Below, piece after piece: positions 23,959 through 34,086 of a stretch of 56,773 nucleotides of DNA (position 1 is the first letter of the stretch; every line of letters begins with the position of its first letter). Under the pieces are notes generated by a model, which had not been told where the DNA came from, ran no database searches, and saw only the letters and a list, made by a program, of their open reading frames with translations. A program made the translations under genes and the position numbers. The DNA is from Chitinophagales bacterium (GTDB lineage: Bacteria; Bacteroidota; Bacteroidia; Chitinophagales; JADIYW01), in NCBI GenBank assembly GCA_044357355.1, contig JBIKPT010000002.1, positions 1 to 56,773 on the forward strand, in the 5' to 3' direction.

Positions 23959-25077
23959 GTGGTTGCCGCTGCGTTGCTGTTTCTATCCGCCAGAAATCCT
24001 GCAACTAAGTTTAATGAAACATCTAAGAACTTAATTACTGTTTCACTAATAGGTATACTGTTGGTTTATCTGCTTTCATTTTATAATTCGGAAAATCACA
24101 GCGAATATTTTAAAGTGATAAAAAATAAAATACCGTATTTATTTATTCCGCTTAGTTTAGTAAGCGTAGATAAATTATCAAAACAGCAGCTAATTTATAT
24201 TCAGTATTTTTTTATCGTTTGTTGCTTATATAGTTCTGGCTGGAGTTATTTTCAATATTTGCAAAACAGTGAAATCTATACCGACTTATATGCAAGAGGT
24301 GAAGTAATACCTACACTTATACATCACGTATCACTGGCTGTTTTACTTTGTTTTGCAGCGATACTTGTTTTAAACAATAGTGTATACAAAAACGGAAAAT
24401 TTGAGAAACTAATAAATGTACTGTTGTTAATCTGGTTTATTTATTTCCTGCATATTTTATCTGTAAGAACCGGAATTCTTTTGTTATACGTAAGTCTGTT
24501 CTTGTACGGTGCTATACTTTTGATTACTCAAAAAAAAATAGTGATTACAATAAGTTTATTATTACTGCTCATCCTAAGTTCTGTAATTTCTTATCACAAA
24601 ATTCCAACCATAAAAAGTAAAATAGCTTATACTTTTTATGGTATAGAACAATATCAAAATAAGCAAGATACTGCCAATGTGGTTTCAGACTCACGCAGAA
24701 TATTATCAGATAAAATTGGAATAGAAATCCTGCAAAAAAATAAACTTTCCGGTGTTGGAATAGGTGATATAAAAGATGAAATGCATATAATTTATAAACA
24801 ACGCTATCCGCAATTTAAAGTAGAAGTATATTCGCATATTCACAATCAATATTTATATACAATGTGCGGTGTTGGTTTACTAACAGGTTCTCTTTTTTGT
24901 ATCCTATTGTTATTACCTATGATTCAATTTATAAGAGATAAAAATTATGTTTTTGTTTTACTTTATGGAATGTTATTAATGGTGATGTTATGGGAACCCT
25001 TTATTGAAAGTCAAATTGGAAATTCAATTTTTTTTGTGGTTTGTTGTGTAGGATTTTTAAGTAAGCAAGAGAGATGA
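23959..25077 (+). CDS. O-antigen ligase (Wzy_C) family membrane protein
   Basis: Polytopic membrane protein with a periplasmic loop ...HIHNQYLYTMCGVGLLTG. The 5' boundary is uncertain. The frame is open and TM-like from 23818 but has no ATG, GTG or TTG before the GTG at 23959. Confidence 0.7.
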   Translation: MVAAALLFLSARNPATKFNETSKNLITVSLIGILLVYLLSFYNSENHSEYFKVIKNKIPYLFIPLSLVSVDKLSKQQLIYIQYFFIVCCLYSSGWSYFQYLQNSEIYTDLYARGEVIPTLIHHVSLAVLLCFAAILVLNNSVYKNGKFEKLINVLLLIWFIYFLHILSVRTGILLLYVSLFLYGAILLITQKKIVITISLLLLLILSSVISYHKIPTIKSKIAYTFYGIEQYQNKQDTANVVSDSRRILSDKIGIEILQKNKLSGVGIGDIKDEMHIIYKQRYPQFKVEVYSHIHNQYLYTMCGVGLLTGSLFCILLLLPMIQFIRDKNYVFVLLYGMLLMVMLWEPFIESQIGNSIFFVVCCVGFLSKQER

Positions 25078-26144
25078 AAAAAAGAATACTACATATCATT
25101 TCATCTGTCAACTGGCGCGGTGGCGAACAACAGGTAGATGCCTTATTTAATTATAGTCACGCTGATTTTGATTATTATATTTTTTGTCCGGAAAATGCTG
25201 AATTACAGAAACGAAACGAAGTAAAAAAAAACAAAATATTTACATACAAAAAACGTTTTGGTGTAGATATATTAGCAGCATTCAAATTGAAAAAAGTTTG
25301 CGCTGGAAATCAAATTGATTTAATACATCTGCACGATAGTCATGCTATCAATACCTATTATATAGCTTGTTTATTCGGATTAAAAATTCCATCCGTTATA
25401 CATAGACATGTTAACTTTCCTGTTACCAAAAAATGGAAATACAATGCTGAGAAAATCAAAAAAATTATCTGTGTTAGTGAAACAGTAAAAGCCGGTTTTC
25501 AGTCTTTTATAACAGAAGAAAAATTAGTAGTCATACAACCTGGAATACATATTAGTCAGTGGACTGAAAACAATAATTCACATAAAATAAAAAATGAGTT
25601 AAACTTGTCCAATGAACATAAAATAGTGGGAATGGTGGCTGCATTGGAAAAAGAAAAAAATATTGATGCCTTTTTAGAAATAGCAAAAAAAGTAATCGAA
25701 CAAAATAACAACATTCATTTCGTACTTATAGGCGATGGAACTTTGATGCATACTTATACACAATCAACTAACCAACAAAAAATGAATATTCATTTTTTGG
25801 GTTTCAGAGACGATGTGAAAGAATTAATTTCTGGTTTTGATGTGTTTTTATTTACTTCTAACAATGAAGGATTTCCGTTGGTATTACTGGAAGCCATGGC
25901 TGCTAAAATTCCAATACTTAGCAATAATTTTCCATCAGTTAATGAATTATTGCAATACCAACAAAACGGACTTCTTTATAAGAATATGGAAGATGCTGTG
26001 TATAAACTACAACTACTGAACAGTGAAACAACACAACGAAATCAACTTGTTGAAAATGCATTTCAATTTGTACAACAATTCGATATAACTTTAATGAATC
26101 AAAGAATAGCAGACGTTTATAAATCCATCTTTACACATGCATAA
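25074..26144 (+). CDS. Glycosyltransferase family 4 (GT-B)
   Basis: NNEGFPLVLLEAMAAKIPILS (E-x7-E motif). 4-nt overlap with the ligase gene. Confidence 0.85.
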   Translation: MKKRILHIISSVNWRGGEQQVDALFNYSHADFDYYIFCPENAELQKRNEVKKNKIFTYKKRFGVDILAAFKLKKVCAGNQIDLIHLHDSHAINTYYIACLFGLKIPSVIHRHVNFPVTKKWKYNAEKIKKIICVSETVKAGFQSFITEEKLVVIQPGIHISQWTENNNSHKIKNELNLSNEHKIVGMVAALEKEKNIDAFLEIAKKVIEQNNNIHFVLIGDGTLMHTYTQSTNQQKMNIHFLGFRDDVKELISGFDVFLFTSNNEGFPLVLLEAMAAKIPILSNNFPSVNELLQYQQNGLLYKNMEDAVYKLQLLNSETTQRNQLVENAFQFVQQFDITLMNQRIADVYKSIFTHA

Positions 26145-26709
26145 AAATATAGGCTTATTTTTCGGATCGTTTAATCCAATACACATCGGACATCTGTTGC
26201 TCGCCACTCATATGCGCGAAGCTGCAGCATTAGATGAGGTATGGTTTATTGTTTCACCGCAAAATCCGTTTAAAAAATGCAGCGAACTGGCCGATGAACA
26301 ACATCGTTTAGAAATGGTAAAACTGGCTACAGAAAAAGTAGAATATTTTAAAGTATCTGATATAGAATTTCAATTAGAAAAACCATCTTACACACACATC
26401 ACTTTAAAAGAACTCAGTAATAAATATCCTGAATATACCTTCCACCTTATTATAGGAGAAGATAATGTGGCTAAATTCCACGAATGGAAAGAAGCAGATT
26501 TGATTTTAGAGAATTATAAAGTGCTTGTTTACAGAAGACAGGTAAATCAAGAAAAAATGCAAGATTCAAGATTCACAACTTACGACTTACCCATGTTTGA
26601 TATATCATCGACTAATATCCGAAATAGAATCCGTACTAATCAAGCAATTAGCTTTTTTGTCACCCAAAACGTGGAACAATTTATCACGTTTCACAAGTTA
26701 TATAAGTAA
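26137..26709 (+). CDS. nadD: Nicotinate-nucleotide adenylyltransferase
   Basis: GLFFGSFNPIHIGHL (HxGH) and ISSTNIRNRI (ISSTxxR). Confidence 0.9.
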   Translation: MHKNIGLFFGSFNPIHIGHLLLATHMREAAALDEVWFIVSPQNPFKKCSELADEQHRLEMVKLATEKVEYFKVSDIEFQLEKPSYTHITLKELSNKYPEYTFHLIIGEDNVAKFHEWKEADLILENYKVLVYRRQVNQEKMQDSRFTTYDLPMFDISSTNIRNRIRTNQAISFFVTQNVEQFITFHKLYK

Positions 26710-28630: not shown

Positions 28631-28657
28631 TACATTTGACACTTCTTGACAAGTCAA
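28631..28657 (+). promoter_or_regulatory. Candidate promoter -7 element and operator of the XRE gene
   Basis: TACATTTG (28631-28638) fits the Bacteroidota TAnnTTTG -7 motif. TTGAC at 28636-28640 is repeated in the palindrome TTGAC-aa-GTCAA at 28646-28657. Confidence 0.35.
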
Positions 28658-28953
28658 AATACAGAAACGTGAGTTACCTAGGACAGAAAATTAGAGAAAC
28701 GAGAGAGAAGCAAAATCTGCTACTCAGACAAGTTGCTGCTCATATTGAAGTTGACACTGCATTAATGAGTAAGGCTGAAAGAGGTGAAAGGAATTTGAAT
28801 AGAGACCAAGTTGTAAAGCTTGCCAAATTCTTTAACTCATCAGAGGAAGAGTTTATTTCTCTATGGCTTTGCGACAAAGTAATTGAAGCGGTTGACAATG
28901 ACCCTTTGGCGACTCAAGGAATAAAAAAAGCGTTAACCAAAATCAAGAATTAA
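28636..28953 (+). CDS. XRE-family helix-turn-helix transcriptional regulator
   Basis: LGQKIRETREKQNLLLRQVAAHIEVDTALMSKAERGERN is a Cro/C1-type HTH. The TTG at 28636 or, more likely, the in-frame GTG at 28669 is the start. Confidence 0.8.
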   Translation: MTLLDKSKYRNVSYLGQKIRETREKQNLLLRQVAAHIEVDTALMSKAERGERNLNRDQVVKLAKFFNSSEEEFISLWLCDKVIEAVDNDPLATQGIKKALTKIKN

Positions 28954-28958
28954 TTTAG

Positions 28959-30935
28959 ATGCAAATCATTCATAAAATAGACAACTTTCTTTACACGATA
29001 TTTCCATCGGTTATTCAGGGCGACCAGCAATCATTGCTCAATGCTATTCAAGAATTTTATACTTACGGACCTTACAAGCCTAAAGTAACAATAGACAATG
29101 ACTTTGTCAGTATTGAGATTGACACACCCACAATTTTAGCTCAAGATTTAGACTACCAAAATGTTATTGCATTTTGTGAGAAAGGTAAATATGCTGATGC
29201 TAAACCTATTCTTAAAAAACTAATCGAGAAGAATCCTGCTATTTCGGAATATCACCGAATTATGGGACAAATACTTTCAGACGAAGGCGACCAAGAAGAA
29301 GCAATCAATTGCTTAATTGATGCATTACGTTGGGACTCAAAAAATGGATGGGCATTGCTTATGATGGGAAACATTTTTGCTAAGTTCAAAGATGATGTTC
29401 CAACTGCTATGAAATATTATGACCAAGCACTAATTGCAAATCCAAAGGACAATATTACCATAAACAACATTGGTGCAAACCTTATGCAACAAGGCAAATT
29501 GGAAGAAGCTAAAAAATATTTTTATGAAGCTCTAAAGATTAACGACAAATATGCAAACACTCATTTTGCATTAGGAATGATTGCTGAAATGGAAGCAGAC
29601 TTGCAGTCTGCTTTTTACAGCACCATTCAAGCTATTAAACTGAATAAGAGTAAGGATGTGTTATATCAGAACTCTGTAAGACAAGCTTTCGAGATTTCAA
29701 AAAAAATAATTGCAACTGATACTGGCAAAAAAATATTCAGGGAATACAGACATAAACTTGAATTTGATGGTGACAGAAAAATTGACATAATTCAAGATGA
29801 AGAAATACCAACGGCAGCAAAATTTGAGTTTGCCGAAAACTATGAAAGAGAAACTCACATTGTAAAATACAAACCAAGTTACCCAGCGGTTGAACATTTG
29901 ATTATGCATGAATTAGTGCATTTAGATTTTGTTATTGAAGCAAGAAAAGGTGCGTTAAACCAATTATTTATTTCTACTCAGAATCATAAAACAGAATTCA
30001 TAAAAGGACTTGAACCGACAATCAAGAAATTCAACAAAATGGGAATTTCTGAAAAGTCAATTGCGGATTATTGTTCGAATCTATTTGAAGGCATGAACCG
30101 TCAAATATTCAATACTCCAATTGACTTGTTTATTGAGAATTTCCTTTATAATGAATTTGCAGAACTCAGACCTTTTCAATTTATCTCTCTTTACAATATG
30201 TTACAAGAAGGCCTGAAGGCTGTAACAGATAAAAAGATTGTTGAACTCTCTCCTAAAGACATAATTTCAAAAAGCAAGGTTTACAATATTGTAAATGCAA
30301 TTCAGTTCAAAGAATTATTTGGTTTTGACTTTATCAAAGACTTCAATGCTACTCCATCAGAAATGAAACTTGCTACAGATTTTTATGACGAGTATCTTCA
30401 ATACAAAGATGATAAAGAACCTGCTGAAGAATATGAATTGGTTTTACATTGGGCTGAAGACTTAAAGGTTGACAAGAACTTTGAACTTGTTAATGAACAA
30501 GAGTATAGAACCAAAAGAACAGATATTGACAACCTTTTATCTTCAATAGAAAAAGATCCTTATGATTTAGAGTCCAAAGACCCATACAAACAGAGGGAAA
30601 TGGACAAATTTCAAAAATCGCAAGAGCAAATAGGTATAAACATGGCGACAGCCATGTTTATGGTTGATGCCTTGCAGTTTTTTGAAGGTAAACCAAAAGA
30701 GGAAATTAAAAAGATTGCTTTTGAAATAGCAACACAAGGAACTCAAGGCTATAGACCAGACAAAGATAATTATCGAATTAACTCTATTAAAGACAAGACT
30801 TTTTCAGGCTACCATATTTTAGCTTATTACTACGTTAGTTGGTCATTAGCAATTCCCGAAATGGTATCTCAATTAAACTTGCCTTATGAAGCAGAATATA
30901 AAATGGCATTGACAATGCATAAACCGAATAAGTAA
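28959..30935 (+). CDS. TPR-repeat protein with HExxH (HELVH) metallopeptidase-like motif
   Basis: 658 aa. TPR-like repeats span ~aa 62-230 (..GKYADAKPILKKLIEKNP.., ..AMKYYDQALIANP.., ..AKKYFYEALKIN..). H317-E318-L-V-H321 lies at nt 29907-29921, with Glu346 25 residues downstream. Confidence 0.65.
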   Translation: MQIIHKIDNFLYTIFPSVIQGDQQSLLNAIQEFYTYGPYKPKVTIDNDFVSIEIDTPTILAQDLDYQNVIAFCEKGKYADAKPILKKLIEKNPAISEYHRIMGQILSDEGDQEEAINCLIDALRWDSKNGWALLMMGNIFAKFKDDVPTAMKYYDQALIANPKDNITINNIGANLMQQGKLEEAKKYFYEALKINDKYANTHFALGMIAEMEADLQSAFYSTIQAIKLNKSKDVLYQNSVRQAFEISKKIIATDTGKKIFREYRHKLEFDGDRKIDIIQDEEIPTAAKFEFAENYERETHIVKYKPSYPAVEHLIMHELVHLDFVIEARKGALNQLFISTQNHKTEFIKGLEPTIKKFNKMGISEKSIADYCSNLFEGMNRQIFNTPIDLFIENFLYNEFAELRPFQFISLYNMLQEGLKAVTDKKIVELSPKDIISKSKVYNIVNAIQFKELFGFDFIKDFNATPSEMKLATDFYDEYLQYKDDKEPAEEYELVLHWAEDLKVDKNFELVNEQEYRTKRTDIDNLLSSIEKDPYDLESKDPYKQREMDKFQKSQEQIGINMATAMFMVDALQFFEGKPKEEIKKIAFEIATQGTQGYRPDKDNYRINSIKDKTFSGYHILAYYYVSWSLAIPEMVSQLNLPYEAEYKMALTMHKPNK

Positions 30936-31264
30936 TGAAAGAAAGCGAAGAAATAATAGAAGCACTTTTGAAATTCAGAAATGAAAGAGATTGGGAACAA
31001 TTCCACAATCCAAAAGATTTGGCATTAGCTATAAGCATTGAATCTGCTGAGCTTTTAGAATTATTTCTTTGGAAGAAAGCAGAGGATGCAAATACTGAAA
31101 AAGTAAAAGAGGAACTTGCTGACATTTTTTCATTTGCGTTTTTGCTAGCTGATAAATATGGATTCGATGTTAAAGAAATTGTCTTGGACAAAATCAAAAC
31201 GAATGGAGAGAAATATCCTGTAGACAAAGCAAAAGGAACATCAAAAAAGTACGATGAACTATAA
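30935..31264 (+). CDS. MazG-like nucleoside triphosphate pyrophosphohydrolase
   Basis: 109 aa. RDWEQFHNPKDLALAISIESAELLELFLWK and VKEELADIFSFAFLLA form the EExxE...ExxD metal-binding pattern of all-alpha NTP-PPases. TAATG start/stop overlap with the upstream gene. Confidence 0.8.
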   Translation: MKESEEIIEALLKFRNERDWEQFHNPKDLALAISIESAELLELFLWKKAEDANTEKVKEELADIFSFAFLLADKYGFDVKEIVLDKIKTNGEKYPVDKAKGTSKKYDEL

Positions 31265-33461
31265 CCAAGATTTTGAAATAAATAAAATTGCGTTCAATAA
31301 TAATGGATTGAATTCTATTCAATCACAATATTTTGTAAGCGAAAATTGGCCTGTCGTATATATTTTAAATAACAATGGTGTAAGTCAAGCCTATGTTGGT
31401 GAAACTATTGATACTAATTCTCGAATTTTCACACATTTGCAAACACCAAGCAAAAGTCATTTACAAGAAGCTCACTTAATTTCAAGCAGAAAATTCAACA
31501 AATCGGTGACTTTAGATATTGAATCCAATTTAATAAAATATTTACATGCTGATGGCAAATACAAATTATTAAATGGCAATTTAGGATTGGTAAATCACTC
31601 TTATTATCAAAGAGATGAGTTCTATTGGGACATGTTTAAAAATATTTGGAATGGTCTTATAAGTAACGGACTTGCCCAGCATAGTTTAGAACATATCTCA
31701 AATAGCGACTTGTTTAAGTATTCACCTTATAAGACCTTATCTGCCGACCAAAGAAAGAATTTGATGTTAATAATTGACGCACTTCTATCTGAAAATAAAA
31801 AATCAATATTGGTAGAAGGAGGCGCAGGCACAGGTAAAACCATACTTGCTATTTTTCTTTTTAAGTTAATGTTAACTTCTGATGAGGATTTTAATTATAG
31901 AGAATTCGGTGAAGACGAAAAAGAATTTGTAGATAAGGTAAAACAATTAAAGATAAAGTTTCCCAATCCTAAAATGGGTTTGGTGATAGCAATGGGTTCT
32001 TTTCGAAAAACTATTAAAAAAGTTTTTCGAAACATTAATGGCTTAAATTCTAATCTTGTTATTGGCCCTTCAGATTTGGAATATGAATCATATGATATTC
32101 TTTTTGTGGATGAATCTCATCGTTTGAGAAAAAGAGTTAATCTTGGCCCGTACTTCGCAATTTATGACAGGGTTTGTAATGCCCTAAAACTAGACAAACT
32201 AAACACTTCAGAATTAGCTTGGACTCAATTAAGGTCAAATAAAGTATTATATTTTTACGATGCTAAACAGTCTATAAAACCTTCTGATGTTGATGCTGTT
32301 GATTTTGAACACTTAAAAAATGCGTCTAACTCTATAAATGTAAAATTACATTCACAGTTCAGAGTAAAAGGAGGCAATGGATTTGTTGATTTTGTAAATA
32401 ATTTATTAGACAATAGTTTTAAGAATAAAGTATTCAAATACAACGACACCAATTATGACTTGCTTCTATTTGAGAATTTTTCTGATTTCGTTAATGAACT
32501 TAGAGAAAAGAACGAAAAACATCAACTTTCAAGATTCATAGCTGGTTATGCCTGGCCATGGATAAGTCAGAATGATCCTAATGCATATGATATTGAAATA
32601 GAAGATATAAAACTAAAATGGAATTCAACTGCAATTGATTACATCAATTCTGATATTGATGCACAAGAAGTAGGTTGTATTCATACCACTCAAGGTTACG
32701 ACCTCAATTATGCGGGAATAATTTTTGGTCCAGAAATTATATACAATCCAATATCAAAAGAAATTGAGATAGTAAAGGAAAATTATAAAGATAGAAATGG
32801 TACTGCAACAATAAGAGATAACGCAGTTCTTAAAGACTACGTAATAAATATTTATAAAACTATTATGCTCAGAGGCATACTAGGTTGCTATATTTATGTG
32901 TGTGACGAAAATTTGCGAAATTATTTTAAAAAGCATATCTATTTATTTAAGGAAAACAAGAATCCAATTGTTGAGATTGCTGAGTCAAAAGAAATTCAGT
33001 TGATTCCATTTGAAAATAGTGTTCCGCTATATTCCTTAAAAGTTGCTGCAGGTGAATTTAAGTTTAATGACAGTATCCCTGAAGAAAAATTCATTGCAGT
33101 TCCTGATGGCGTAAAAATTACACAAGACCATTTTGCGTGTAAAATAATTGGTAACTCTATGAACAAAATAGTACAAGATGGTCAAATAGCTTTGTTTAAA
33201 AGGTATACTGGTGGCAGTAGAAATGGCTTAATGGTCATTGCTGAATATTACGACCATCAAGATTTAGATTATGGTTCTTGTTATACATTCAAGGAGTATT
33301 ACAGTCAGAAAACTATTAACGAGGAAAGTTGGCAACATGAAAGAATAATTCTGAAACCAAAGTCATTTGATGCTTCATATCAAGATATAGTGATAGACCC
33401 GAATGCAATAAATGAAAAGACCTTTAATGTAATAGGAATATTTGACAGAGTAATTGAATAA
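31254..33461 (+). CDS. Three-domain fusion: GIY-YIG nuclease + P-loop SF1/DUF2075-type helicase + C-terminal LexA-like S24 peptidase domain
   Basis: GIY-YIG: VVY36IL..AY47VGET..R57..H61..E90..N92. Walker A: GGAGTGKT, aa 189-196 (nt 31818-31841). Walker B: ILFVDESH, aa 282-289. Helicase C-terminal motif: IHTTQGYDLNYAGIIFG. S24: PLYSLKVAA|GEF (A599/G600, nt 33048-33053), GNS635M (nt 33150-33161), TFK680EY. Confidence 0.8.
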   Translation: MNYNQDFEINKIAFNNNGLNSIQSQYFVSENWPVVYILNNNGVSQAYVGETIDTNSRIFTHLQTPSKSHLQEAHLISSRKFNKSVTLDIESNLIKYLHADGKYKLLNGNLGLVNHSYYQRDEFYWDMFKNIWNGLISNGLAQHSLEHISNSDLFKYSPYKTLSADQRKNLMLIIDALLSENKKSILVEGGAGTGKTILAIFLFKLMLTSDEDFNYREFGEDEKEFVDKVKQLKIKFPNPKMGLVIAMGSFRKTIKKVFRNINGLNSNLVIGPSDLEYESYDILFVDESHRLRKRVNLGPYFAIYDRVCNALKLDKLNTSELAWTQLRSNKVLYFYDAKQSIKPSDVDAVDFEHLKNASNSINVKLHSQFRVKGGNGFVDFVNNLLDNSFKNKVFKYNDTNYDLLLFENFSDFVNELREKNEKHQLSRFIAGYAWPWISQNDPNAYDIEIEDIKLKWNSTAIDYINSDIDAQEVGCIHTTQGYDLNYAGIIFGPEIIYNPISKEIEIVKENYKDRNGTATIRDNAVLKDYVINIYKTIMLRGILGCYIYVCDENLRNYFKKHIYLFKENKNPIVEIAESKEIQLIPFENSVPLYSLKVAAGEFKFNDSIPEEKFIAVPDGVKITQDHFACKIIGNSMNKIVQDGQIALFKRYTGGSRNGLMVIAEYYDHQDLDYGSCYTFKEYYSQKTINEESWQHERIILKPKSFDASYQDIVIDPNAINEKTFNVIGIFDRVIE

Positions 33462-33486
33462 TAAATAATTCAGCCCATGCAGCAGT

Positions 33487-33780
33487 CACACACATTTGCA
33501 AGCCTCACAAGCCAACACACAAGCCAAAGCTTGCAAAAGAGTGTGCCTGCCCAACCGCACAGACACCGTGACACAGTGGACAAACAAACCACGACAGAAA
33601 GAAGGGCAGCTTGTAACAGCACCTACCCAAAAGGCGGGGTTTCGTGTTCCAAAGACAGTTTTGTGGTTAATCAATCATTAGTTTTTCAAATCAAGTTTTG
33701 TGGTAAAAGTCCCGCCCTTCGGGTAGCTGCAAACCGTTAAAAATAAAAAAAGAGCAACTGACGCTGCTCTTGGGTTTTTC
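33487..33780 (+). ncRNA. Candidate structured RNA / structured 3' UTR downstream of the cassette
   Basis: C/A-rich and G-poor on the + strand. Hairpin CACACA-TTTGCAAGC...GCTTGCAAA-aga-GTGTG at 33487-33545. CTGCCC/GGGCAG helix at ~33547/33603. Long helix GCA.CTACCC....GGCGGG (33619-33638) pairs with CCCGCC....GGGTAG.TGC (33711-30). That helix encloses the direct repeat AGTTTTGTGGT at 33657 and 33694. The element ends in a terminator hairpin. Confidence 0.35.
33750..33780 (+). terminator. Rho-independent-type terminator
   Basis: AAGAGCA-actgacgc-TGCTCTT followed by gggTTTTTc, with an A-tract upstream. Confidence 0.55.
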
Positions 33781-33892
33781 TGTTTCTAGTGGGAGTTTTT
33801 GTTTCTAGACTTCAGGGTAGGTTTTGGGTTTCTTTTCTTTGGGTTGTTTTTATGTTTCTACACTTCAGGGTTGGGTTTCTATGTTTCCAGCC
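33776..33892. repeat. Imperfect tandem repeats carrying TGTTTCTA motifs
   Basis: Two ~48-bp units: gtttttgtttctagacttcagggtaggttttgggtttct.. and gtttttatgtttctacacttcagggttgggtttct... TGTTTCTA/TGTTTCC occurs at about 33781, 33800, 33853 and 33882. Confidence 0.6.
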
Positions 33893-34086
33893 TTTCGCTG
33901 TTTGATAATGTAAAGATGCAGCAAAACCCGTTCAAAATAAATTAAGGATAAACACCATATGTGACATGCTTATTTTCAGGCATTAAAATAGCTAGCATTA
34001 TCTTAATTTGATAAATCCTGAAATACAATACACAATAAGCTCAACTTTATTTGCAGAATACTGTTTATGCTGTTATACTTTACAGC

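Follow-up and report, generated by a model that had tools for sequence, protein, structure and literature searches.

A GIY-YIG nuclease and DUF2075 helicase fusion with a predicted LexA/UmuD-type autoprotease domain in a two-gene cassette

The locus and its three-domain protein

The window analysed here, a whole stretch of 56,773 nucleotides from a Chitinophagales bacterium, holds a gene for a 735-aa protein in which a GIY-YIG nuclease, a DUF2075/Schlafen-group-3 SF1 helicase and a LexA/UmuD-type S24 domain follow one another from N- to C-terminus (Table 1). The open reading frame, which begins with ATG, is present as an earlier note on this DNA had described it, and a scripted check found GGAGTGKT, VDESH, VAAGEF, GNSM and TFKEY at the positions claimed there and located the helicase motif IHTTQGYDLNYAGIIFG at residue 476. 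The three folds and their order, likewise proposed from the letters alone, were borne out by Pfam, by profile matches to the PDB, by an AlphaFold2 model of the protein (mean pLDDT 89.8, pTM 0.75), by Foldseek and by family-level matches to PF01541.

Membership of the N-terminal domain in the GIY-YIG superfamily is apparent at the level of the family. The 735-aa query alone scores 16.3 bits against PF01541, below the cut-off of 22.6; all 16 N-terminal domains sampled from the family match this model, the best at 1.5e-10. Searched against the PDB, a profile of the family's N-terminal domains finds T4 endonuclease II, UvrC and I-TevI as its top matches (E about 0.01). The catalytic set expected on the alpha/beta core, namely GIY...YIG, Arg, His/Tyr, Glu and Asn, is represented by Y36, Y47, G49, R57, H61, E90 and N107, which are invariant or nearly so in an alignment of 106 sequences. 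The residues through E90 had been picked out correctly beforehand, but N92 had been listed in place of the conserved Asn, which is N107; N92 is invariant in relatives of at least 72% identity and falls outside the invariant and near-invariant columns of the wider family (106 sequences).

The helicase domain matches PF09848 (SLFN-g3_helicase) across model positions 2-354 of 354 (1.4e-54, 186 bits), and this full-length match with intact Walker A and Walker B motifs places it in the DUF2075/SLFN-g3 family. K195, D286 and E287 are invariant in the family alignment. Foldseek searches with the model retrieved the SF1B helicases RecD2, Upf1 and Dna2, together with SLFN11 and SLFN14. The link between DUF2075 and group III Schlafen proteins, which the earlier note had drawn, is correct; PF09848 now carries that name.

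Table 1. Features of the cassette and its surroundings, in coordinates of the window.
Feature	Position	Strand	Basis
XRE-type HTH protein, 105 aa	28636..28953	+	PF01381 at 1e-7
Accessory 658-aa protein, TPR repeats (N-terminal) and HExxH region (C-terminal)	28959..30935	+	TPR Pfam matches
MazG-like NTP pyrophosphohydrolase, 109 aa	30935..31264	+	PF12643 at 1e-20
GIY-YIG / DUF2075 helicase / S24 fusion, 735 aa	31254..33461	+	ORF, Pfam, AlphaFold2
GIY-YIG nuclease core, residues about 30-112	31341..31589	+	Invariant columns, PF01541 family matches, profile matches
SF1 helicase core, DUF2075 / SLFN-g3_helicase, residues 183-551	31800..32906	+	PF09848, Foldseek
Walker A GGAGTGKT, residues 189-196 (K195)	31818-31841	+	
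Walker B VDESH, residues 285-289	32106-32120	+	
Inter-domain linker, residues 564-588	32943..33017	+	pLDDT <50 at 571-585
LexA/UmuD-type S24 domain, residues 589-735	33018..33458	+	PF00717, profile-PDB, Foldseek
Predicted self-cleavage site A599-G600 in KVAAGEF (VAAGEF 597-602)	33048..33053	+	Aligns to LexA A84-G85
S635, predicted nucleophile, GNSM (633-636)	33156..33158	+	Aligns to LexA S119
K680, predicted general base, TFKEY (678-682)	33291..33293	+	Aligns to LexA K156
Conserved non-coding element directly 3' of the 735-aa gene	33475..33739	+	Comparison with L052

The gene pair and its surroundings

The stop of the MazG-like gene and the start of the 735-aa gene overlap by 11 nt, a coupling that the earlier note had overlooked. 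Of the 77 loci across the family that could be assessed, with or without S24, 73 have a MazG-like gene immediately upstream in the same orientation, and its product keeps E36, E39, E42, E60 and D63 invariant or nearly so (at least 99% of 81 sequences). A homologue on a B. cereus plasmid is annotated ‘nucleotide pyrophosphohydrolase’; PADLOC models gave no match to the MazG-like partner. The two genes form a conserved, mobile cassette in which the MazG-like gene comes first and the 735-aa gene second. The pairing of a MazG-like gene with GIY-YIG-DUF2075 spans Bacteroidota, Proteobacteria, Bacillota, Actinomycetota, Saccharibacteria and one archaeal MAG, and appears to be without an existing name. 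No published account of the pair or of the three-domain architecture was found in the literature searched, in agreement with the earlier note, which had not recognised the architecture as a described effector.

Upstream of the pair, the stop codon of the gene for the TPR protein (30933-30935) abuts the MazG-like ATG, the two genes sharing nt 30935 in the ORF-list coordinates. The HExxH motif of the 658-aa protein, MHELVHL at residues 316-322, is invariant in seven near-full-length homologues, and all eight of the loci with this gene that could be judged adjoin S24-bearing forms. The gene for the XRE-type HTH protein, possibly a local regulator, lies five nucleotides upstream of the TPR gene; an HTH is kept in L001 only, as a called HTH_31 gene (100 aa) just upstream of the TPR gene. 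A conserved third partner was considered and rejected: among 81 loci the TPR/HExxH gene occurs in only 9, and the HTH in a single one. A DinB_2 gene lies downstream of the cassette within the window and is not conserved at other loci.

The non-coding element directly 3' of the 735-aa gene is 91-92% identical to the sequence at the same position in locus L052, where the helicase gene shares only 41-51% amino acid identity. This element is probably the end of the mobile cassette, and the comparison indicates that the central gene is exchanged as a mosaic between conserved cassette ends, with rapid turnover. The element has an RNA fold z-score of -2.2 and no Rfam match, and neither the window nor the 3' spacer gave a hit when scanned for tRNAs and Rfam families. 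Beyond the cassette, the flanks differ in every genome, with toxin-antitoxin modules, a Y1 transposase and Bro-N among them, and a locus on a Bacillus megaplasmid is flanked by HNH plus TnpB. Neighbours matching defence models include SoFic (three), WYL (three), a type III methyltransferase, a dCTPase and PADLOC candidates, and a Pfam scan added two AbiEii-type ATPases (PF13304 AAA_21). The neighbourhood is only moderately defence-flavoured, with housekeeping genes present too, glycyl-tRNA synthetase for example.

These surroundings bear on whether the cassette might be a module for DNA-damage tolerance or repair instead of immunity. A UvrC/Slx1-like GIY-YIG nuclease and a helicase would then process damaged or stalled forks while the MazG-like protein sanitises the dNTP pool and a UmuD-like S24 domain couples the timing of activity to SOS, on the model of plasmid-borne umuDC or rumAB cassettes. 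The profile matches to UvrC, the likeness of the S24 domain to UmuD, the housecleaning family to which the MazG-like protein belongs and the DinB_2 gene downstream would all suit such a role; mobile repair cassettes are known, and viral collections hold next to no members of the family. However, the DinB_2 neighbour is not conserved, and the patchy spread, variable flanks, toxin-antitoxin and defence-type neighbours and mosaic turnover are more typical of conflict systems. Nhi and Nhi-like, the nearest characterised relatives by architecture, are moreover anti-phage, and we consider a repair role unlikely.

The S24 domain and its distribution

Residues 591-667 match PF00717 (Peptidase_S24) at 31.7 bits, above the cut-off of 23.3. 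A profile built from the family's S24 domains retrieves LexA chains exclusively from the PDB (E 1e-5), and the alignment places AAG onto VAAGEP, GxSM onto GMSM and TVK onto TVKRL; LexA was reached solely via this family profile, a PDB search with the single C-terminal 176-aa sequence having returned nothing meaningful. With the AlphaFold model of the domain as query, the top 37 Foldseek matches are LexA, lambda cI or UmuD (E down to 3.5e-6; best TM-score normalised to target 0.77). The domain combines the S24 beta-barrel fold, the GxSM Ser and Lys and an Ala/Cys-Gly site in the N-terminal strand-loop; the loop that follows the predicted cleavage site, residues 601-610, is modelled at pLDDT <50. 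By HMM as by modelled structure, the C-terminal fold came out S24-like, as the earlier note had anticipated, and the assignment goes well past what chance would give.

The note had also held that all three LexA determinants, the A-G site, the Ser and the Lys, are retained, and they do align onto LexA and are conserved in distant relatives. Across 20 diverse S24-bearing members, A598, G600, G633, S635, M636 and K680 are invariant and position 599 (P1) is either A or C, with C-G as in UmuD, while distant members share about 25-45% identity with the query within the domain. P0169 is the single degenerate member, in which the A-G site is gone and K680 is replaced by Arg. Because the site, Ser and Lys are invariant at such divergence, selection appears to have been for catalysis and not for a scaffold. 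The best reading of the C-terminal domain, made from sequence and model, is that of a predicted catalytically competent LexA/UmuD-type autoprotease. A LexA repressor proper was rejected as an identity for the protein, which lacks the N-terminal winged-helix DNA-binding domain and has GIY-YIG and helicase domains there; the NCBIfam lexA model reaches 15.6 bits (cut-off 110.95), over the C-terminal part only.

The protein is not unique, a point that the earlier note had missed. A survey of the three-domain order revealed a widespread family, with this form occurring in Bacteroidota, Gammaproteobacteria, Lentisphaeria, Saccharibacteria and others in a distribution that is patchy over many phyla. 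Many Bacteroidota, for their part, are not known to possess a LexA. Within the family S24 is an optional C-terminal add-on: the commoner relatives are GIY-YIG-DUF2075 proteins of 560-590 aa that stop at about residue 563-590, the position of the linker. Among the best 150 representative clusters, 17 match the query-type S24 profile, and P0184 and P0186 are two more S24-bearing members. Since most GIY-YIG-DUF2075 relatives do without S24, the domain is best taken as a regulator and not as part of the core machine, and the putative switch would be dispensable for core activity.

In the helicase tree, S24-bearing members are intermixed with S24-less sisters. Moreover, in P0184 and P0186, and in the Saccharibacteria loci L040, L057 and L062, the S24 domain resembles E. 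coli LexA (52-62 bits) more than it does the query-type S24 (33 bits or less). These domains are found at the same place in the chain, the C-terminus, and they too have C-G or A-G, GxSM and Lys. Tree and domain comparison together indicate that S24 was captured at least twice independently, and on these grounds a single origin of the fusion was rejected. A word-indexed search restricted to the S24 domain gave, for the most part, short-contig fragments of the same fusion. P0146 (194 aa), a candidate stand-alone S24 protein or split system, begins at the equivalent of residue 538, in the helicase tail, and was set aside as a 3' relic. An origin in phages or prophages was also rejected: six loci turned up in 2.9 million viral contigs, along with four phage records, and S24 is absent from all of them.

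The S24 domain could also be an adaptor that only dimerises the enzyme, docks it in the groove of a RecA-ssDNA filament, or both, with self-cleavage irrelevant or absent. S24 C-terminal domains dimerise and bind RecA filaments, and LexA, cI and UmuD on such filaments (8gms, 8gmu, 8gmt, 8trg) are among the fold matches; P0306, which has an HTH in place of S24 at the same C-terminal position, suggests that this end of the protein can take up targeting modules in general. Against this reading, the site Gly, the GxSM Ser and the Lys have remained invariant as the rest of the domain diverged, and the catalytic residues recur in independently captured S24 domains. P0169, furthermore, lost site and Lys together, and a pure scaffold would not keep them. 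We regard a non-cleaving role as quite improbable.

A possible RecA*-licensed effector and its known relatives

Our preferred reading, which we hold tentatively, is that the protein is an Nhi-like nuclease-helicase in conflict with phage or other invading DNA and is licensed by RecA*-stimulated self-cleavage; we infer the cleavage, its trigger, its direction and the role in defence. The 735-aa protein would be the effector of the mobile cassette, most likely acting against phages or other invading DNA, and its GIY-YIG and DUF2075 core would be the same kind of machine as Nhi and Nhi-like, unwinding and degrading phage replication intermediates. The S24 domain would dock on the RecA-ssDNA filaments (RecA*) that form upon phage DNA replication or DNA damage, and would cut its own chain at A599-G600 by means of S635 and K680. 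This cut would free the 599-residue nuclease-helicase, thereby licensed to act, from the 136-residue S24 core (600-735), which probably serves for dimerisation and autoinhibition. Cleavage could alternatively depend on another co-protease or be spontaneous.

Self-cleavage might also run in the opposite direction. The enzyme would be active from its synthesis on, for instance as a dimer held together by S24, and RecA*-stimulated cleavage during SOS would inactivate or destabilise it, much as cleaved LexA fragments are degraded, sparing the ssDNA-containing repair and restart intermediates of the host. This reading draws on the same structural indications that the S24 domain is competent. Cleavage inactivates LexA and lambda cI by splitting the functional domain from the dimerisation domain, UmuD alone being activated, and an enzyme that targets replication intermediates, on the model of Nhi, would put a damaged host chromosome at risk. 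Yet S24-less relatives are common, and cells evidently tolerate the core enzyme without such a safety device; we give inactivation by cleavage only a small chance.

If the protein is indeed licensed by cleavage, the built-in LexA-type module suggests how Nhi-type defences might tell phage from host DNA, namely by reading the RecA-ssDNA filament. A broader and more doubtful proposal is that bacteria have repeatedly added S24 to a Schlafen-type helicase-nuclease as a portable sensor of RecA* filaments, yielding a one-chain immune effector that phage replication, through its ssDNA-RecA signal, would arm by proteolysis. Were this so, LexA-type autoproteolysis would for the first time be seen to control an enzyme directly, as opposed to a repressor or a polymerase accessory factor, and the reach of S24 autoproteolysis would grow beyond transcription factors and UmuD to the direct control of enzymes after translation. 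The arrangement would provide a direct route from a DNA-damage signal to an immune effector without a transcriptional relay, a bacterial counterpart of SLFN11 recruitment to ssDNA at stressed forks, with the MazG-like partner working on the nucleotide pool as its second arm. Natural controls exist within the family: the S24-less sisters, P0169 without site and Lys, and the independently captured S24 domains.

Among known systems, Nhi (S. epidermidis SERP2475) joins a nuclease to a DUF2075 helicase, breaks down replication intermediates of phages and can be counteracted by a phage SSB (Bari et al. 2022), and the anti-phage Nhi-like system has a domain organisation in common with it (Millman et al. 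2022). The 735-aa protein resembles both in carrying an N-terminal nuclease and a DUF2075-type SF1 helicase on one chain, in being accessory and horizontally spread and, as we propose, in targeting DNA replication intermediates. The PADLOC Nhi model matches it partially (1.9e-10, 38 bits; residues 273-418, model positions 259-372 of 470). It differs in that its nuclease is of the GIY-YIG type and in its MazG-like partner and C-terminal S24 domain, neither of which is described for Nhi or Nhi-like; both of these are stand-alone single-gene systems, whereas here the upstream MazG-like gene is a near-constant companion.

With LexA, UmuD and lambda cI (MEROPS S24) the C-terminal domain shares its fold and the order and spacing of the Ala/Cys-Gly site, the GxSM Ser and the Lys. 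As in LexA, the site is found where the domain begins, beyond a flexible linker, and predicted cleavage would part an N-terminal module from the S24 core. That module is a 599-residue two-enzyme machine, in contrast to the DNA-binding domain of LexA and cI and the 24-residue peptide of UmuD, and the query-type S24 departs from LexA in two insertions, around residues 668-676 and 685-694.

The helicase is homologous (PF09848) to that of the group III Schlafens, human SLFN11, SLFN5 and SLFN14 (Foldseek matches 7zel and 9uie). SLFN11 acts on ssDNA at stressed replication forks following DNA damage, and the existence of GIY-YIG-DUF2075 fusions is stated in the same source (PMC6765204). The parallel with the 735-aa protein is conceptual, a link to DNA damage that here would run via S24 and RecA*. 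Identity as a Schlafen was rejected, as Pfam finds no Schlafen core (AlbA_2) nuclease domain and the N-terminus is GIY-YIG.

In CBASS with CapH/CapP, activation of defence is tied to DNA damage. For the helicase-containing defence AbpAB, phage SSB or host DNA damage is reported as the trigger. These systems resemble the proposed effector in linking activation to ssDNA or DNA-damage signals; there the signal passes via separate proteins or transcription, whereas here the presumed sensor-protease lies inside the effector chain itself.

Active sites of the nuclease, helicase and S24 domains

The 735-aa open reading frame is present as the earlier note described, with every reported motif at the residue it named. 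Pfam assigns residues 183-551 to SLFN-g3_helicase (PF09848, formerly DUF2075; 1.4e-54, full model length) and residues 591-667 to Peptidase_S24 (31.7 bits, above the 23.3-bit cut-off). A GIY-YIG match on residues 34-71 scores 16.3 bits, below the 22.6-bit cut-off. While the query alone is sub-threshold, its family is above it and bears out the proposed GIY-YIG fold: PF01541 was matched by all 16 sampled family N-terminal domains (best 1.5e-10), and the top PDB matches of a profile of family N-termini were T4 endonuclease II, UvrC and I-TevI (E ~0.01). Across 106 sequences there is little or no variation at Y36, Y47, G49, R57, H61, E90 and N107. The residues first picked out for this domain stand with one correction, as the conserved asparagine is N107 and not N92, which is invariant in close relatives but not in the wider family. 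In the helicase, K195, D286 and E287 are invariant, and the confident full-length AlphaFold2 model (pLDDT 89.8, pTM 0.75) matches the SF1B helicases RecD2, Upf1, Dna2, Pif1, Dda, SLFN11 and SLFN14; this model and the full-length PF09848 match support the helicase fold. Both active sites of the nuclease-helicase are intact.

For the C-terminal domain, we built a profile from 16 members with 26-43% identity to the query. LexA chains were its sole PDB matches (E 1e-5), and the alignment places A-A-G on the VAAGEP of LexA, G-x-S-M on GMSM (S119) and T-V-K on TVKRL (K156). The first 37 Foldseek matches of the domain model (pLDDT 80.7) were LexA, lambda cI and UmuD, with signal peptidases next. Profile, model and the above-threshold PF00717 match agree on the S24 fold that had been read from the query. 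A598, G600, G633, S635, M636 and K680 are invariant in 20 diverse S24-bearing members, in keeping with the claim that all three LexA determinants (site, Ser, Lys) are retained. Confidence in the full model is low in two segments, the linker (571-585) and the loop that directly follows the scissile bond (601-610). As judged from these alignments, the catalytic apparatus and the scissile bond of the S24 domain are intact and conserved, and a flexible linker precedes the domain.

The domain could instead serve as a non-cleaving adaptor for dimerisation or RecA docking, which we consider improbable given the conserved residues and the one member that departs from them. P0169, a 728-aa homologous protein from a representative cluster, is the single S24-bearing exception with a degenerate site: it has T-P-I-G in place of A-A-G and arginine for the catalytic lysine, and keeps the serine as G-E-S-M. 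The loss of site and lysine is coordinated, which likewise disfavours an adaptor, and P0169 could act as a natural non-cleavable control.

Features of the locus, in + strand order, and motifs of the 735-aa protein (L052, L001 and L030 are homologous loci)
Feature	Position	Strand	Remarks
NadA gene		+	
XRE HTH gene	28636-28953	+	
TPR protein gene, 658 aa	28959-30935	+	N-terminal TPR repeats
MazG-like gene, 109 aa	30935-31264	+	
735-aa gene	31254..33461	+	ATG-initiated ORF
Non-coding stretch			~590 nt
Conserved non-coding element	33475-33739	+	directly after 735-aa gene stop codon
Counterparts of 3' element	L052:10170-10434; L001:10263-10346; L030:10230-10276		
DinB_2 gene		+	
GGAGTGKT	residues 189-196		735-aa protein
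VDESH	residues 285-289		735-aa protein
IHTTQGYDLNYAGIIFG	residue 476		735-aa protein
VAAGEF	residues 597-602		735-aa protein
GNSM	residues 633-636		735-aa protein
TFKEY	residues 678-682		735-aa protein

Distribution and origin of the S24 fusion

The three-domain order proved common in databases, across many hosts. PF00717 and PF09848 are both present in the best 120 matches of a word-indexed search (72-96% identity), except for one without a precomputed PF00717 match, and their only database name is 'DUF2075 domain-containing protein'. Searched exhaustively, 1.84 billion cluster representatives yielded 2687 relatives, 399 of them at E <=1e-30. The best 150 of these 2687 are mostly 550-600 aa long and end at query residue ~563; the query-type S24 profile was matched in 17 of the 150, and two further bearers, P0184 and P0186, have a more canonical S24. 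Across the 80 best loci, taken as one genome per species, and the locus L001, a sample biased towards relatives of the query, S24 directly follows the helicase in 54 and is clearly absent in 25. Hosts of the S24-bearing form include Flavobacterium, Mucilaginibacter, Chitinophaga, Pedobacter, Sphingobacterium, Marinobacter, Alcanivorax, Vreelandella, Nitrincola, Lentisphaeria, Balneola, Firestonebacteria and Saccharibacteria. Viral collections contain almost no members of the family, and no S24-bearing form was found in those searched.

In a rough neighbour-joining tree of the helicase core, S24 bearers are scattered and often paired with an S24-less sister. At least two unrelated S24 types sit on the GIY-YIG-DUF2075 scaffold. 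In the long type, that of the query, the site is A-A-G or A-C-G and two insertions set the domain apart from LexA. The compact, canonical S24 domains of P0184 and P0186, also found in the Saccharibacteria loci L040, L057 and L062, are of separate origin; those of P0184 and P0186 score 62 and 52 bits against E. coli LexA, at most 33 bits against the long type and 39 bits against each other (E. coli LexA and UmuD sequences served as yardsticks, the LexA part agreeing with PDB alignments). Apart from P0169, every S24 type keeps site, serine and lysine. Other additions to the scaffold are a C-terminal XRE HTH (P0306) and an N-terminal HsdR_N domain (P0164). We read the S24 domain, from these sequence comparisons, as an optional regulatory accretion, captured more than once and under selection for catalysis.

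Separately, a 194-aa protein (P0146; loci L087-L089) is a 3' relic of the fusion gene, with helicase tail and S24 from the equivalent of residue 538, and lies after an unrelated 625-aa PLP-enzyme-like gene, which is evidence for cassette decay or rearrangement in some genomes.

The two-gene cassette and its limits

The MazG-like stop codon overlaps the start of the 735-aa gene. Of 81 loci, 77 were assessable, and in 73 of these the next gene upstream, on the same strand, is MazG-like, whether the form bears S24 or not; the hosts belong to Bacteroidota, Proteobacteria, Actinomycetota, Clostridia and Saccharibacteria, with an archaeal MAG besides. The same pair, annotated 'nucleotide pyrophosphohydrolase' and 'DUF2075 domain-containing protein', occurs on Bacillus cereus-group megaplasmids, adjoined by HNH and TnpB genes. 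In 81 MazG-like sequences the ExxE...ExxD acidic residues E36, E39, E42, E60 and D63 vary little or not at all. Because this gene is conserved upstream and keeps its acidic residues, the conserved unit is a two-gene cassette, in which the 735-aa gene has an NTP pyrophosphohydrolase as its partner. Candidate substrates of the partner are modified or canonical dNTPs, or a regulatory nucleotide.

The stop codon of the TPR gene abuts the MazG-like ATG. Its product has an invariant HExxH (MHELVHL, residues 316-322) in a C-terminal region that matched no peptidase family; it occurs in 9 of the 81 loci, beside S24-bearing genes in all 8 that could be judged. The small XRE HTH gene recurs at one other locus of the 81. 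Together the two resemble an XRE plus metallopeptidase regulatory pair. Further upstream, before NadA, 23959-26709 (+) holds ordinary surface-polysaccharide genes unrelated to the fusion gene (Wzy_C O-antigen ligase-like, GT4 glycosyltransferase, cytidylyltransferase).

Cassette flanks vary between genomes and include HigB/A-, HepT/MNT- and UPF0175-type toxin-antitoxin pairs, a Y1 transposase and Bro-N. Defence models run on 116 ORFs that flank the cassette at 31 loci matched SoFic (three), WYL (three), a type III methyltransferase, a dCTPase and PADLOC candidates, and Pfam matched two AbiEii-type ATPases (PF13304 AAA_21); housekeeping genes such as GlyRS were also present. The distribution of the cassette is accessory and mobile.

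L052, a Flavobacteriaceae MAG locus, marks the cassette limits at ~30930-33739, as its similarity runs from the MazG start to the 3' element. The MazG-like gene is 93% identical in DNA (30930-31262 vs L052:7622-7954) and the 265 nt that follow the central gene are 91-92% identical, whereas the central gene itself shares just 41-51% protein identity. This mosaic indicates recombinational turnover of the effector, the central gene having been swapped or strongly diverged. The 3' element is single-copy in the window, contains an inverted repeat, CACACATTTGCAAGC (33489-33503) ... GCTTGCAAAAGAGTGTG (33528-33544), has an RNA fold z-score of -2.2 and matches no Rfam family; it could represent a 3'UTR RNA or a cassette recombination boundary. 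In the spacer between cassette and DinB_2, a short direct repeat, TGTTTCTA-N-ACTTCAGGGT-like, occurs twice (~33775-33900, +), closely preceded by a terminator-like stem (~33745-33775).

Proposed self-cleavage and comparison with known systems

All that we say of the cassette's function we infer. The S24 domain would cut A599|G600, parting residues 1-599 (GIY-YIG and helicase) from the S24 core, topologically the same case as LexA. The stimulus, by analogy, would be RecA-ssDNA, to our knowledge that of every characterised S24 family member. The cut would license the enzyme; conversely, it might be a safety off-switch during host SOS, which we think unlikely. Self-cleavage leading to activation in a defence role is our tentative preference, at slightly under an even chance, because Nhi-type enzymes target phage replication intermediates, the helicase-based defence AbpAB is reportedly triggered by DNA-damage or ssDNA signals, and the evolutionary pattern is conflict-like. 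The view of the cassette as a mobile module that serves damage tolerance or repair, not immunity, also seems unlikely to us.

The earlier note did not recognise this architecture as a described one, and we found no published description either: full-text searches, with many subscription papers outside their reach, returned no paper on DUF2075 with S24, on DUF2075 with MazG or on S24 inside a defence effector, and database names are generic. The nuclease-helicase and the autoprotease are each of a known type; their combination is undescribed in the literature searched. Fusions of DUF2075 to GIY-YIG, PD-(D/E)xK or HsdR_N domains are on record (PMC6765204).

By fold and catalytic motifs the protein belongs to the S24 peptidases. 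Lacking a winged-helix domain, it does not count as a LexA repressor (NCBIfam lexA, 15.6 bits vs 110.95). With group III Schlafens it has the helicase domain in common, but not the Schlafen core domain. In its working, a nuclease joined to a DUF2075 helicase, it is similar to Nhi and Nhi-like defences, as a candidate member at most, with the PADLOC Nhi model matching residues 273-418 only; unlike them, it has a GIY-YIG nuclease and belongs to a system of two genes.
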